From NCBI GenBank assembly GCA_965220965.1, contig OZ244852.1, positions 1,696,001 to 1,760,000 of the forward strand: DNA of 64,000 nucleotides, given 5' to 3'. Under the pieces are notes generated by a model. The model saw only the letters and a list, made by a program, of their open reading frames with translations, was not told the DNA's origin and did not search any database. Position numbers and translations under genes: made by a program. Origin of the DNA: Candidatus Marinacidobacterium sp. Its GTDB lineage: Bacteria > Acidobacteriota > Vicinamibacteria > Marinacidobacterales > Marinacidobacteraceae. This document shows positions 9,594 to 61,104 of the stretch, piece by piece (positions within the stretch are counted from its first letter, which is position 1; every line of letters starts with the position of its first letter).

Positions 9594-10082
9594 ATGACGA
9601 AGATGCTGAAAGCCGCCCTGGTTGTCGCGCTCCTCGGACTCGCGTTCGGAAGCGGATGGCTGGCGTCCGGGATCGGGGTTGGCCGGCGGGCGCCCGCCAG
9701 TTCGCTCGAAGCGCGCGAGGCGGCGTTCCTCGAGCGGATGACGAACGTCGCGCTCGACGGGAGCTTCACGGTGGCGTGGCCCGAAGCGCGCGAGGGCGAG
9801 TTCCGCGATCGCTACGAGATTTCCTCGGTCGAGAAACTGGACGGGAACCGGTGGCGGTTCAACGCCCGGGTGATCTACGGGAGCGTCGATGTCACCGCGC
9901 CGGTCGTCGTCCCGATGGAGTTCGTCGGGGACGTGCCGGTCATCGTGCTGAAGGACGCGGCGCTGCCGGGACTCGGGGACGAGTTCGGCGCGGTGGTGTC
10001 GTTCGATGGAGATCGCTACGCGGGAACCTGGGACCACGGGGAGGTGGGAGGTTTCCTCTACGGCCGCATCGAACCGCAGTAG
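9594..10082 (+). CDS. Conserved hypothetical exported/membrane-anchored beta-rich protein
   Basis: N-terminal hydrophobic segment; SD GGAGG; normal GC3-rich codon usage; YAGTWDHGEVGGFLYG C-terminus. Confidence 0.7.
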   Translation: MTKMLKAALVVALLGLAFGSGWLASGIGVGRRAPASSLEAREAAFLERMTNVALDGSFTVAWPEAREGEFRDRYEISSVEKLDGNRWRFNARVIYGSVDVTAPVVVPMEFVGDVPVIVLKDAALPGLGDEFGAVVSFDGDRYAGTWDHGEVGGFLYGRIEPQ

Positions 10083-10126
10083 CGGTCTCCGTTAGGGCTC
10101 CCCGGCCAGGAGCCGCGGGAAGCCTC

Positions 10127-10855
10127 TCAGCTCCTGGGCTTGAGCAGCGCCGCGCGGCGCGCGGTGGACTCCGGGGAGAACCAGGTCTCGAGGAAGCCCT
10201 CGCGCTTTTCGTCGCGGCTTCCGGCGGCCCGGCCGGCGTAGGGGTTCCGGAGCTCGAGCTTGGTGTGCTCGTAGGCGCCTCGGGGAAGCGCTCCGAGTTC
10301 GCCGGCGAGCGTGCGGGCGTGCGGGAGGAGCTCCTCGGGTGGGGCGAGTTCGTGGAGGAAGCCGTTTTGGACCGCTTCCTCCGGCCCGGTGAGGGCGCCC
10401 CGGAGGAGCACCCCGGAGGTGCGCGTCGCCGGAATCGCGGCGCGCAGGATCTCGAAGGCGATCGCGGGGAAGACCACCCCGAGCGACACCTCGGAGACGC
10501 CGACCCGGTAGTCGCCCTCGGCCCCCAGCCGGAAGTCGCACGCGGCGGCCAGAATGGCTCCTCCGGCGACGGCGTGGCCGTTCACCGCGGCGACCGTGGG
10601 CGTCGGAAAGAGGAACAGCCGGGCGAGGAGGTCCTCGAAGTCGCCGAGGAACCGGCTCATGCCCGGACGGTCCGACGGAAGCCCCGTCAGGTCGAGGCCC
10701 GCCGAGAAGAACTTCCCGGACCCGGTGAGCACGACCGGCGCGGCGTCCTCCTGCGCCCGGTCGAGGCCGGCGCCGAGACGGGCGACCAGTTCGGGCCCGA
10801 TGGCGTTCGCCCGGCCGGTATCGAGCGTGAGGACTGCGGCCCCGGAAGCGGTCAT
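10127..10855 (-). CDS. Enoyl-CoA hydratase/isomerase family protein
   Basis: FFSAGLDL, PTVAAVNGHAVAGGAILAAACDFR and SEVSLG crotonase motifs. Confidence 0.9.
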   Translation of the reverse strand: MTASGAAVLTLDTGRANAIGPELVARLGAGLDRAQEDAAPVVLTGSGKFFSAGLDLTGLPSDRPGMSRFLGDFEDLLARLFLFPTPTVAAVNGHAVAGGAILAAACDFRLGAEGDYRVGVSEVSLGVVFPAIAFEILRAAIPATRTSGVLLRGALTGPEEAVQNGFLHELAPPEELLPHARTLAGELGALPRGAYEHTKLELRNPYAGRAAGSRDEKREGFLETWFSPESTARRAALLKPRS

Positions 10856-10882
10856 CGAGCGTTCCGGGGCCGCGGCGTTCGA

Positions 10883-11515
10883 CTACTCGAGGCCTTCGAG
10901 CGCTTCCATCAGCGGGCCGTAGTCATCCACGATCTGGTAGTCGTAGTTGACGTACCGGAGGATGCCTTCGCGGTCCACCACGAACGTGGCGCGGGAGGCG
11001 TAGGTGGCCCCGTTGATCTCGAGCGGCTTCACGCCGTACGCGTCCACCACTTCGGTCGTGCGGTCCGAGAGCAGCACGAGCGCGGGCAGTTCGCCTTCGG
11101 CGGCCTGCGGGCGGCCGCCCTTGTCGGCCGAGAAGCTCTCCATCCAGTTCCACTGGGAGAACGGAGAGTCGACACTGATTCCGAAAACCATGGCGCCTGC
11201 ATCCAGAAACTTCTGGATGTCGTCCCTGTAGGACGAAAACTGGCGCGTTCAACCACCCGTCCAGTCGGCGACATAGAAGGCGAGCACGATGTTCTTCTCG
11301 CCGATCACGTCCTGGAGCGCGATGCTGGTCGCGCCGGGGCGTTCCCCGGCGGTGGAGGGCAGCGCGTTCGGGAAGGCGGGCGCCCGGTCTCCCACCTTGA
11401 GCGGTCCGTCCTGGGCCATCGCGTCAGGAGCGGCCGGTCCGGCGGCGAGGCCGAAGGCGAGGGCTGCGGCGACGCCGAGGAGCGACGCCTGACGCAGCAA
11501 AACGGGGAGCTTCAT
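10883..11515 (-). CDS. Peroxiredoxin (AhpC/TSA family) selenoprotein, 210 aa, in-frame UGA (Sec) at 11249-11251
   Basis: Signal peptide + LKVGDRAPAF...VLAFYVADWTGG-UGA-TRQFSSY...VFGISVDS...SRATFVVD; UGA sits at the peroxidatic Cys position; SD GGAGGT; joins track ORFs 11249..12229 (3' part) and 10883..11191 in one frame. Confidence 0.85.
11220..11236 (-). promoter_or_regulatory. Candidate bacterial SECIS hairpin
   Basis: UCGUCC-UACAG-GGACGA hairpin starting 12 nt after the UGA; second hairpin CAUCCAGA-AGUU-UCUGGAUG at 11200-11219. Confidence 0.6.
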
Positions 11516-11770
11516 GGGGGACCTCCGCGGAGAAGGACATGGGATGGGTTCGGGGAGATTGTGGCATGAAGGCGATCCGCGCTGGAGCAGCGCCGGCCGA
11601 TGACGCCCGCCAGGGCTGGCGACGCGCGCGGCGAGCCGCGATCGTCCTGATCTGGCGCGACCCCCTCGCGCCCCGCCCATCGCTCCGTCCGGGTGGTAGG
11701 CTTGATTTTCCCGAATTTCTCCCCTCCCGCCGGGGTGTGGCGGAACCGAACCGAGAGGCATGGTGGACTG

Positions 11771-12247
11771 GTGAGTCTGAGTTTTCGTTCGCGTCTGGAG
11801 GCCGAGGTGCGGGCCCTCGAAGAGGAGCTGCACCTCCACCTCCCGAAGCAGATCAAGGAGGCGCGGGAGCACGGCGACCTCTCGGAGAACGCGGAGTACG
11901 AGGCGGCGAAGGAACGGCAGGGGTACGTCGCGGTGCGGCTGACCCAGTTGAAGAAGCGGCTCGCCGACCTGTCCATGCTGAACCTCGAGAACATCCCGGC
12001 CGACCGGGTGTCGCTCGGGAGCGTGGTGAAGGTCATGGACCTGGACACCGAGGAGGAGCAGCGCTACGAACTGGTCGTGAGCGAGGAAGCCGACGCCGCG
12101 AAGGGCAAGGTCTCCACCGGCTCGCCGATCGGGCGCGCGCTGATGGGCTCGCGGGTGGGCGACGAAGTGAACGTCCGGACCCCGAAGGGGGAGCGGGAGC
12201 TTGAGGTGCTCGACCTGAAGACCATCCACGAACGGGGGGCAAAGTGA
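11771..12247 (+). CDS. greA: Transcription elongation factor GreA
   Basis: IKEAREHGDLSENAEYEAAKERQ and STGSPIGRALMG motifs; start codon uncertain. Confidence 0.92.
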   Translation: MSLSFRSRLEAEVRALEEELHLHLPKQIKEAREHGDLSENAEYEAAKERQGYVAVRLTQLKKRLADLSMLNLENIPADRVSLGSVVKVMDLDTEEEQRYELVVSEEADAAKGKVSTGSPIGRALMGSRVGDEVNVRTPKGERELEVLDLKTIHERGAK

Positions 12248-59635: not shown

Positions 59636-60154
59636 CTATTCGCCGAGGCCGAGGAGTCTGCGGACTTCCGCTTCGAGGCGGTCCGGAGTCCGGTTGGGGT
59701 TGAACCCGAGGTGCTGGGTCCGGACGATCCCCTCGCGATCGGCGATGTAGGTCGTGGGCATGGCGAAGATCCGGAAGGCCTCGTCGGCGCGAAGCGTGGA
59801 GATGAGGTTCAGGTAGCTGACCCCGCGCTCGTCGAGGAACTCGCGGATCTCGTCCGTGGGCGGAACCTGGTCGTCCACGTGGAGACCGATCACCACCAGA
59901 CCGTCGTCGCGATAGCGGTCCTCGAGTTCCTGGAAGAACGGGAGCGAGAGCTCGCAGGGACCGCACCAGACCGCCCAGAAGTCGTAGACGACAACTTTCC
60001 CCGGAAAGCCGCGCAGGGACACTTCGTTCCCTTCCAGATCCGGGAGGGCGAGGTCGGGCGCCGGCTCCTCGAGGACGCCCCGCTGGGCGGCGGCGGGCGC
60101 CGCGAGCGCGACGGCGGCGATCAGGACGGCCGGGACGAGAGCGATCTTCATCAT
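59636..60154 (-). CDS. TlpA/ResA-like exported thiol-disulfide oxidoreductase
   Basis: Signal peptide; APDLALPDLEG; DFWAVWCGPC; MPTTYIADREG. Confidence 0.9.
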   Translation of the reverse strand: MMKIALVPAVLIAAVALAAPAAAQRGVLEEPAPDLALPDLEGNEVSLRGFPGKVVVYDFWAVWCGPCELSLPFFQELEDRYRDDGLVVIGLHVDDQVPPTDEIREFLDERGVSYLNLISTLRADEAFRIFAMPTTYIADREGIVRTQHLGFNPNRTPDRLEAEVRRLLGLGE

Positions 60155-61104
60155 TCGTGCTCCGCGAGCCAGCGCTCGCAACTGATGGCCGCCATGCAGC
60201 CGGTTCCGGCCGCGGTGACCGCCTGCCGGTAGGTCGGGTCCATCACGTCCCCGCAGGCGAAGACGCCCTCCACCGAGGTCGTGGTGGTCCCGGGCCGGAC
60301 TTCGACGTAGCCTCGGGGGTCGAGCTCGAGCCGCTCGTGGAAGATCTCGGTGTTCGGAACGTGGCCGATGGCCACGAACATCGCGCCGACCGGAAGCTCC
60401 GAGTCGGCGCCGGTCTTCCGGTTCCGCAGCCGCAATCCGGTGACGCCGTCGTCGTCGCCGAGAACCTCCTCCACGACCGAATCCCAAACGAAGCGGATCC
60501 CGGCGTGGTTCAGCGCCCGGTTCGCCATGATCCGCGAGGCGCGCAGTTCGTCGCGCCGATGGATCACGTGGACGGTGGAGGCGAACCGCGTCAGGAACAG
60601 CGCCTCCTCCATCGCGGTGTCCCCGCCGCCGACGACCGCCATCTCGCGGCCCCGGTAGAGCGCCCCGTCACAGGTGGCGCAGGCGGAAACGCCTCGGTTC
60701 AGGAAGGCCTTCTCCGAGTCGAGGCCCAGCCAGCGGGCGCGCGCCCCGGTCGCCACGATCACCGACTCCGCGGTCCACGAGTCCTCCCCGGCGTGAACGG
60801 TGAAGGGGCGGGAGGAGAAGTCCACCCCATCGGCGTCCAGGTTGTGGACCTCGGCGCCGAAGCGCTCCGCCTGCCGGCGGAACAGGTCCATGAGCTCGGG
60901 GCCGGTGACGCCCTCGGGGAAGCCGGGGTAGTTCTCCACATCGGTGGTCAGCATGAGCTGGCCCCCGGGAAGGCCGATGTCCGGCTCGAAGCCCGAGCCC
61001 GCGAGGACGACCGGCTGGAGCTCGGCGCGCGCGGCGTAGAGCGCGGCGGTGTAGCCGGCCGGTCCGCTGCCGATGATGACGACGCGACGAGAACTGTCGG
61101 ACAA
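60151..61104 (-). CDS. trxB: Thioredoxin-disulfide reductase
   Basis: IIGSGPAGYTAA, VENYPGF, SACATCDG, GGGDTAMEEA and YRQAVTAAGTGC. Confidence 0.96.
   Translation of the reverse strand: MSDSSRRVVIIGSGPAGYTAALYAARAELQPVVLAGSGFEPDIGLPGGQLMLTTDVENYPGFPEGVTGPELMDLFRRQAERFGAEVHNLDADGVDFSSRPFTVHAGEDSWTAESVIVATGARARWLGLDSEKAFLNRGVSACATCDGALYRGREMAVVGGGDTAMEEALFLTRFASTVHVIHRRDELRASRIMANRALNHAGIRFVWDSVVEEVLGDDDGVTGLRLRNRKTGADSELPVGAMFVAIGHVPNTEIFHERLELDPRGYVEVRPGTTTTSVEGVFACGDVMDPTYRQAVTAAGTGCMAAISCERWLAEHE

Follow-up and report, generated by a model that had tools for sequence, protein, structure and literature searches.

Whether a TGA codon that interrupts an otherwise continuous reading frame is a stop, or encodes selenocysteine (Sec, U) at a catalytic position, is the question raised by positions 10883–11515 of a 64,000-nt stretch of the genome of Candidatus Marinacidobacterium sp. 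(hereafter the window; assembly GCA_965220965.1, contig OZ244852.1, designated here G000:C1:1696001-1760000). The analysis indicates that one gene located on the minus strand (11515..10883) very likely encodes the 210-residue precursor of an extracytoplasmic 1-Sec peroxiredoxin (Prx), referred to below as Sec-Prx, in which UGA-89 is read as Sec via a two-hairpin element that follows it; it is highly probable that the locus is a real selenoprotein gene. Direct support comes from the reading frame, the protein family, the position of U in the column of the peroxidatic cysteine (C_P), the Sec machinery of the genome, the conservation of the TGA and of both halves of the gene, the frozen synonymous sites and the split gene calls in public databases.

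When the single internal TGA is translated as U, the minus strand from 11515 to 10883 forms one frame of 210 codons; reading the plus strand of 10883–11515 gives nothing meaningful. An earlier note on this DNA had proposed a hidden exported selenoprotein of 210 aa without cysteine and quoted several of its peptides, giving no strand; translation confirmed the frame, the peptides and the lack of Cys (0 in 210 aa) and places the gene on the minus strand. The product opens with MKLPVLLRQASLLGVAAALAFGLAAG, reaches ...AMA followed directly by QDG, and contains further on FYVADWTGG-U-TRQFSSYRDD, GISVDS and SRATFVVD. The sole in-frame stop is the TGA at 11251–11249, codon 89 (U89). In a listing of open reading frames (ORFs) made with translation table 11, the region is split into a 5′ piece that runs up to the TGA and a 102-aa piece that starts from Met110.

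Pfam searches clearly indicate the relationship of the product to peroxiredoxins: the AhpC-TSA family (PF00578) matches with 86 bits (cut-off 26) over residues 41–189 and profile positions 1–124 of 124, spanning the TGA, and Redoxin matches with 56 bits. The best sequence matches in the PDB are the archaeal Bcp/PrxQ proteins 3hjp, 2ywn and 3drn, and U89 is aligned to the C_P of 2ywn (...AFTQVCTKEM...) and to the equivalent column of 3hjp and 3drn, which is the slot to which the UGA had been assigned in the earlier note. In an alignment of 33 sequences, composed of 23 members of the clade and 10 distant homologs (alignment A2), the columns of C/U89 and R175 are invariant and that of T86 is nearly invariant. 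The replacement of the Pro of the PxxxTxxC motif by Val and the retention of the catalytic Arg, both also claimed earlier, were located in this alignment at Val82, Thr86 and Arg175; the Pro position is Val in 23/23 clade members and Pro in 10/10 distant homologs, and Val82 is found as well in all 30 ortholog sequences displayed in the comparison of the TGA column. The protein thus has the domain, the fold and the Thr and Arg of peroxiredoxins, and lacks their conserved Pro.

AlphaFold2 modelling, based on alignment A2, predicted one Prx domain (mean predicted local distance difference test score, pLDDT, 84.9; predicted template modelling score, pTM, 0.79), with pLDDT above 90 over residues 40–210, except for a dip to 79 at residues 131–140, and below 50 for residues 1–33. 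In the model, U89 is located within helix 87–98, in the first turn of helix alpha2. A Foldseek search against the PDB returned only peroxiredoxins, with Bcp4 (3hjp) as the top match (E 2.9e-15, TMt 0.82), and further matches to Bcp1 (3drn; TMt 0.86, root-mean-square deviation 2.2) and to the 1-Cys AhpE (1xxu; TMt 0.82). The clade has inserts of its own, namely about 16 residues between helix 118–132 and strand 146–150 and an N-terminal PSTAGExPG segment. None of the curated NCBIfam equivalogs was reached by Sec-Prx (PrxU NF040737, 40.4 bits vs 270; Prx-SUH NF045827, 17.9 vs 298), and the score for the Bcp equivalog PRK09437 (47.3 bits) is below the cut-off of 140. Many BCP/PrxQ members possess a resolving Cys five residues after C_P. 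Judged from its best sequence and fold matches in the PDB, which are of the Bcp type, Sec-Prx is BCP-like, yet not assignable to the BCP/PrxQ subfamily.

The distribution of the gene was studied by a six-frame search of the own genome and 60 relatives (61 genomes; the tallies over this set, including those for two other proteins discussed below, count one unpublished genome, G036, on which no other result depends). A Sec-Prx ortholog was found in 34/61 genomes (the own genome and 33/60 relatives), with 58–87% identity and E <=1e-65. By family, it is present in 26/27 genomes of the own family, the one miss being a 66%-complete genome, in 4/8 and 3/19 genomes of the two other families of the order, and in 0/6 genomes of other families of the class; no match with E <=1e-40 appeared in 400 other sampled Acidobacteriota genomes, and the gene was not found outside the order among the genomes searched. 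The named public records that contain orthologs (24 loci) are all metagenome-assembled genomes titled Acidobacteria, Acidobacteriota, Vicinamibacteria, Vicinamibacteraceae or Candidatus Marinacidobacterium. Each of the 34 orthologs has exactly one TGA, always in the same column, in the context ...KNIVLAFYVADWTG[G/T]-TGA-T[R/L/T]QFSSY.... The absence of a resolving residue and a signal-peptide-like N-terminus, both expected from the window sequence in the earlier note, are shared by all of them: the mature part lacks Cys in 34/34 (few Cys in three sequences lie in over-extended start guesses), and a basic, then hydrophobic N-terminus ending in a small-x-small pattern before Q or E is seen by eye in 34/34, though the sequence there diverges strongly. 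In most orthologs GGAGG or GGAGGT stands before the start codon at a place equivalent to that in the window.

Among distant homologs (28–38% identity), nine carry Cys at the U89 column, several of them as the classic PrxQ motif ...PGCTxEAC..., and two carry TGA (...FPKAFT[G/A]G-TGA-T...), which is the alternation of UGA and Cys that had been named as a check; judged from these alignments, switching between Cys and TGA at this column is a pattern typical of selenoproteins. Nei–Gojobori comparisons of the window gene with seven orthologs gave ratios of non-synonymous to synonymous substitution rates (dN/dS, with dS for the synonymous rate) of 0.08–0.53 upstream and 0.14–0.39 downstream of the UGA; with values below 1 on both sides, both halves are protein-coding. 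The codon itself is firmly established, TGC or TGT at 11249–11251 having been listed earlier as a refuting result: contigs assembled from two sequencing runs of two studies, one of which may be the source of the window itself and which, as contigs, drop rare variants, cover 10800–11600 in a single piece with 0 differences over 801 bases (word depths 122 and 4.1). Together with the 33 independent assemblies that also have TGA, these two contigs rule out a sequencing error for practical purposes, and this explanation was rejected.

The genome (3.25 Mb in two contigs, 94% complete, 71.5% G+C) encodes the machinery for Sec insertion whose absence would have contradicted the proposal. The products of selA (492 bits, cut-off 268), selB (326, cut-off 242) and selD (252, cut-off 125) exceed the curated cut-offs, and ARAGORN found one tRNA-SeC with the anticodon UCA and no second UCA tRNA. 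TGA closes 2344 of 3382 open frames of at least 400 codons and is the commonest terminator, so there is no sign of a genome-wide reassignment; with TGA as an ordinary stop and tRNA-Sec as the sole UCA tRNA, reassignment was rejected. Formate dehydrogenase (FdhA) is the usual bacterial selenoprotein. The molybdopterin oxidoreductase domain (PF00384) has 0 matches in this genome, which at 94% completeness leaves its absence unproven, and its lack indicates that FdhA is not what the Sec machinery serves here.

Two other redox genes of the genome contain an in-frame TGA; one is for an exported redoxin (GGW-U-PFC) and the other for an AhpD/CMD-like protein (CHY-U). The former (G000:C1:1193730-1194323, minus strand; L086:1423-2016) is a second exported selenoprotein, a 198-aa redoxin of the UxxC type with an AhpC-TSA score of 98 bits, a signal-peptide-like N-terminus and a hairpin with the loop GGC 14 nt after the UGA; 46 of the 47 matching genomes among the 61 searched have exactly one TGA in the gene, and the type is known as a "Prx-like thiol:disulfide oxidoreductase". 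The latter (G000:C1:1905943-1906338, minus strand; L095/L096) carries its TGA in C-H-Y-U and has a hairpin that starts 12 nt after the UGA, with a loop GGUCU of the classic G-G-U type; it is a probable third selenoprotein of the genome. Thioredoxin-fold and AhpD-like redox proteins seem to be the only ones for which the Sec trait is retained. Many more AhpC/redoxin-like matches that each contain a single in-frame TGA were seen in the larger genomes of the order (relatives G029–G054), with as many as nine in one 9-Mb genome, and thioredoxin-fold selenoproteins appear to be abundant in the order overall.

The split of the gene by standard pipelines, predicted in the earlier note, was evident from a search of 5.8 billion protein clusters, divided into a full-length class (115–368 aa) and a fragment class (30–114 aa). 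In the former, 31 matches with E <=1e-10 were found, the best with 40% identity, about 155 aa and of cytoplasmic size, annotated as "peroxiredoxin" or "redoxin domain-containing protein"; there was no full-length relative and no Cys counterpart above 40% identity among these clusters. In the latter, there were 104 fragment matches with 54–100% identity, each covering about 23–49% of the query. Many of them are C-terminal (about 97 aa) and have Pfam domains, many others are N-terminal (about 84–95 aa) and have none, and some pairs share one Mb-sized contig, e.g., fragments of 98 aa and 101 aa on a contig of 2,908,270 bases. Where names are given, which is rare, they read "peroxiredoxin" or "hypothetical protein", and none says selenoprotein. 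The Sec-Prx clade is stored in public protein sets only as fragments, its N- and C-terminal parts separated, and counts of the selenoproteome and of the oxidative-stress repertoire are consequently too low for these uncultured Acidobacteria.

The nucleotide sequence that follows the UGA is conserved at synonymous sites. Synonymous-codon entropy averages 0.22 bits over the 17 codons that follow U vs 0.83 over the remaining 132 usable codons; among all windows of 17 codons along the gene, the one that begins at the U column has the lowest value, and dS is 0.10–0.38 in these codons vs 0.4–2.2 in the flanks. The stretch folds into two abutting hairpins, 11236–11200. The hairpin noticed earlier as starting 12 nt after the UGA was recovered as a 7-bp hairpin (hairpin 1, 19 nt from the UGA to the loop, with loops ACA, ACC, AUC or AUA across orthologs), and a second, 8-bp hairpin follows it directly (hairpin 2, 37 nt from the UGA to the loop). 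Pairing is kept in 345/345 cells over 23 distinct sequences (161/161 over the seven pairs of hairpin 1 and 184/184 over the eight pairs of hairpin 2); three pairs vary on one side only with pairing kept, as U-A to U-G twice in hairpin 1 and A-U to G-U once in hairpin 2, the last in four sequences.

According to the accessible text of a 2026 review, the model of the bacterial Sec insertion sequence (bSECIS) comprises a loop of 3–9 nt, a stem of 4–16 bp, a G within the first two nucleotides of the loop (with G/U usually next), a distance from UGA to loop of 16–37 nt and a minimum free energy <=-7.5 kcal/mol (PMC13188914). With these rules, as worded there, applied by hand, hairpin 2 agrees with all of them, its spacing being at the upper limit, and hairpin 1 breaks only the rule on the loop G. 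The hairpins of the two other selenoprotein genes of the genome stand 12–14 nt after the UGA and have the loops GGUCU and GGC, that is, they combine the position of hairpin 1 with the loop type of hairpin 2. As a guess, SelB might bind hairpin 2, with hairpin 1 as a structured spacer. An Rfam search gave two chance-level matches only (E >4) and no bacterial SECIS family. Distant homologs of Sec-Prx with an intact PxxxTxxU (FPKAFT-G/A-G-U) were observed in two loci from other families of the class (L048 and L051). Each of these has one long hairpin after the UGA, with the loop CGUU 27 nt from the UGA in one and the loop ACA at 28 nt in the other, and these single long hairpins indicate that Sec-Prx branches within one class differ in their recoding element.

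Taken together, these data suggest the following scheme. The two abutting hairpins at 11236–11200 would recruit SelB with Sec-tRNA(Sec), so that UGA-89 is decoded as Sec instead of stop; the presequence would direct export through the inner membrane, and cleavage would probably occur after A-M-A34. The selenolate of U89 in the mature enzyme, located in the first turn of helix 87–98 beside T86 and R175, would attack a peroxide and become a selenenic acid. The mature protein has no Cys, so an internal resolving step is not expected, and an external thiol would be required to reduce the oxidised U89; the best candidate for this reduction is an exported thioredoxin-fold protein supplied by the single CcdA/DsbD-type membrane transporter of the genome. 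The parts of this scheme that we infer are the insertion of selenium, export and processing of the precursor, its activity as a peroxidase and which protein acts as reductant.

Several observations weigh against parts of this scheme. A compensatory double change occurs in 0/15 hairpin pairs, which gives no proof by covariation, and the support for the hairpins consists of their conservation and the three one-sided compatible changes; this conservation could partly stem from the highly conserved peptide TxQFSSYxDDIQKFLD, and a shuffle control was uninformative, since the hairpin columns hardly vary. The hairpin bound by SelB is ambiguous, hairpin 1 being well placed and lacking the loop G and hairpin 2 having a G-U loop at the 37-nt limit. 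The export signal was judged by eye, and an uncleaved membrane anchor is possible. Finally, Val replaces an otherwise universal Pro across the clade, and the substrate or the kinetics may therefore differ from those of an ordinary Prx. The last point bears on an alternative that seems improbable, namely that the protein is a selenoprotein with a Prx fold that is not mainly a peroxide scavenger and acts instead as a selenol oxidoreductase or sensor for envelope substrates (protein sulfenic acids, lipid hydroperoxides only, peroxynitrite). The Val in all clade members, the inserts peculiar to the clade (about 16 residues and the PSTAGExPG segment) and scores far under the cut-off of every curated Prx equivalog favour such a function, whereas Thr86, U89 and Arg175 occupy the conserved positions of the Prx catalytic triad and the nearest folds to the model are all peroxiredoxins.

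Decoding of UGA-89 without Sec, by near-cognate read-through with Trp or Cys or by local recoding independent of SelB, is very unlikely. Selenium in the product is a prediction from the sequence, and the missing loop G of hairpin 1 deviates from the published bSECIS model, as such decoding would allow; but the genome maintains a complete selA/selB/selD/tRNA-Sec set despite having no molybdopterin oxidoreductase or FdhA to use it, tRNA-Sec is the only tRNA with a UCA anticodon, and Sec and Cys alternate among homologs at the U89 column, which is also the behaviour of known selenoproteins. An enzyme with Trp in its catalytic site would be dead, which does not fit with the purifying selection acting on the gene. 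Still harder to accept is a real stop at TGA-89, with the locus being a pseudogene or two separate small genes (88 aa and about 102 aa) as in public gene calls. Gene callers do yield exactly these two fragments and TGA is the commonest stop of the genome, but one Prx domain spans the codon, the catalytic position and Arg175 would not both be present in either fragment, the TGA is kept in 34/34 orthologs down to 58% identity with dN/dS <1 on both sides, and synonymous sites are frozen just after it. A selenoprotein gene that encodes a 1-Sec peroxiredoxin is thus the reading retained here, and its features are collected in Table 1 together with the neighbouring and candidate partner genes.

Table 1. 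Features of the Sec-Prx gene and of associated genes in the window (positions are those of the window).
Feature	Positions	Strand	Details and basis
Sec-Prx coding sequence, complete	10883..11515	-	ATG 11515-11513, UGA 11251-11249, TAG 10885-10883
Shine-Dalgarno-like GGAGG, 6 nt before ATG	11522..11526	-	Sequence inspection
Signal-peptide-like presequence, residues 1-34; K2/R8, hydrophobic core ASLLGVAAALAFGLAAG, A-M-A before Q35	11414..11515	-	By inspection
In-frame TGA, proposed Sec U89 in T86-G-G-U89	11249..11251	-	Aligns to C_P column; ortholog conservation
Val82 codon, site of Pro in PxxxTxxC	11270..11272	-	Alignment A2
Arg175 codon, conserved Prx active-site Arg	10991..10993	-	Invariant in alignment A2
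Hairpin 1: 7-bp stem (11236-11230 with 11226-11220), loop ACA, -8.4 kcal/mol	11220..11236	-	Folding, conserved pairing
Hairpin 2: 8-bp stem (11219-11212 with 11207-11200), loop AGUU, -10.4 kcal/mol	11200..11219	-	Folding, conserved pairing
Enoyl-CoA hydratase/isomerase-family gene (ECH), 27 nt downstream of Sec-Prx	10127..10855	-	Pfam ECH_1 111 bits
Exported TlpA/ResA-like thioredoxin-fold protein, WCGPC; candidate reductant	59636..60157	-	Pfam Redoxin 66.9, AhpC-TSA 62.1, Thioredoxin 30.3 bits
trxB, thioredoxin-reductase-like flavoprotein, CATC motif	60151..61104	-	Pfam Pyr_redox_2 174 bits

The ECH gene is probably co-transcribed with the Sec-Prx gene, and no terminator-like site was found between the two; a scan of 10000–11800 for promoters and terminators gave 0 promoter-like sites and one terminator-like site, on the other strand and at chance level. 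The genes greA and nfeD are located upstream in divergent orientation. The order of neighbours is retained in related loci, with ECH downstream in 24/24, GreA in 23/24 and NfeD in 22/24; these loci are close relatives, and no functional link is read from the synteny. The plus strand of the window also contains, at 9594–10082, an ORF of 162 aa whose N-terminus is hydrophobic and which matches no Pfam family; a search with this query found it in just the two most closely related loci (about 75% identity). Elsewhere in the genome, the second contig contains nine tRNA genes within 1 kb (C2:271965-272943; Lys, Arg, Ser, Ser, Arg, Ser, Ser, Ala, Tyr) and two unusually long (91-nt) tRNA calls, Pro-CGG and Trp-CCA (C2:119664-119754 and 142035-142125), and this contig could be a mobile element, a phage or mis-binned.

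As for the candidate reductants, an exported TlpA encoded with trxB at 59.6–61.1 kb had been suggested in the earlier note as the recycling partner, and both genes are indeed present and overlap. The end of trxB overlaps the start of the TlpA-like gene by 7 nt; it is unusual for a cytoplasmic reductase to be paired in this way with a thioredoxin-fold protein that is exported, and the two genes form a probable operon. A single DsbD_TM/CcdA gene was found in the genome, adjacent to a further redoxin gene (G000:C1:2229547), and there are several genes for exported proteins with a thioredoxin fold. In the set of 61 genomes, the TlpA-like protein is present in 51, the UxxC Sec-redoxin in 47 and Sec-Prx in 34; both candidates are broader than Sec-Prx and present in nearly all of its holders, and co-occurrence therefore cannot pick the reductant. 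By analogy with the PprX system considered below, a TlpA relay for the recycling of Sec-Prx is plausible.

The main value of the result is a correction of the annotation of an active-site selenoprotein for an order-level clade. A natural 1-Sec Prx without Cys or a Cys counterpart, predicted to work in the oxidising envelope, suits the question of why selenium is preferred over sulphur, for which the usual idea is resistance to irreversible over-oxidation, and it would allow one to ask which envelope reductant acts on the selenenic acid. A genome with no molybdopterin oxidoreductase and at least three redox selenoproteins points to retention of the Sec trait for something other than formate dehydrogenase, and the spacing rules of bacterial SECIS could be examined in a simple way with the two-hairpin element. 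A broader proposal is put forward tentatively and with considerable doubt: perhaps the order keeps the Sec machinery without formate dehydrogenase mainly for extracytoplasmic selenium-based peroxide defence by an obligately Sec-dependent, Cys-free, exported VxxxTxxU peroxidase, which might be recycled via CcdA by a TlpA-like protein or by the UxxC Sec-redoxin, and whose UGA might be recoded by an unusual element of two hairpins, with a structured spacer hairpin that presents the distal G-U loop to SelB.

The type of enzyme is already known. Catalogues of selenoproteins have included Sec-peroxiredoxins with the TxxU motif since 2005; in the Sargasso Sea set, as far as the accessible part of that study reports, the family (COG1225/PF00578) comprised 43 genes, ranking second in abundance among the known selenoprotein families (PMC1088965). 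A genome survey of 2006 gave, in its accessible part, 12 Sec-peroxiredoxin genes, and three selenoprotein families with four selenoproteins for Acidobacteria (PMC1794560). The 2026 review lists the family with a "highly conserved PxxxTxxU motif", and its accessible text does not contain the terms "signal peptide", "periplasm" or "Acidobacteri" (PMC13188914). Exported selenoproteins as such are not new either: in its accessible part, one preprint describes a selenoprotein that is a multiheme cytochrome c (bioRxiv 10.1101/2025.11.18.688581), and another, which also deals with selenoproteins truncated in database entries, describes SaoB, a substrate-binding selenoprotein (bioRxiv 10.1101/2022.07.06.499078). 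Neither an exported Sec-Prx nor this clade was found described in the open-access text searched.

As the family is described in the accessible sources, the window protein shares with it the fold, the Pfam family, the peroxidatic UGA in T-x-x-U, a SECIS within the ORF just 3′ of the UGA and the existence of Cys homologs; it differs in that the published motif is PxxxTxxU, whereas this clade has VxxxTxxU, a predicted export signal, a Cys-free mature part and two abutting hairpins. The traits of the clade itself are therefore the predicted export signal, VxxxTxxU without any Cys, the lack of a Cys counterpart in the searches made and the two-hairpin recoding element. PrxU (NF040737) of Eubacterium acidaminophilum and Prx-SUH (NF045827) resemble Sec-Prx as selenocysteine peroxiredoxins; scores far under the cut-offs of both indicate that the window protein is a member of neither.

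The closest parallel in terms of export is PprX of Caulobacter crescentus, in the accessible part of its description an exported BCP/PrxQ Prx that is reduced by TlpA, itself reduced by ScsB (PMC3322552). On this partial account, the two systems share a BCP/PrxQ-like domain behind an N-terminal signal sequence, which in the window protein is a putative one, and the genome studied here also encodes a TlpA-like thioredoxin and a transporter of the DsbD family. PprX has Cys, an intact PxxxTxxC and a resolving Cys, whereas the window protein has Sec, no resolving residue and has lost the Pro; the PprX system, as described there, uses ScsB, whereas the transporter here is a single CcdA/DsbD_TM match. 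The 1-Cys peroxiredoxins AhpE of Mycobacterium tuberculosis and Bcp4 of Sulfolobus solfataricus are close structures to the model and likewise have a single redox-active residue, but they are cytoplasmic Cys enzymes that keep the Pro, and their identity to the window protein is only 28–30%. In 1-Cys peroxiredoxins, it is the oxidised catalytic residue itself on which the external reductant has to act.

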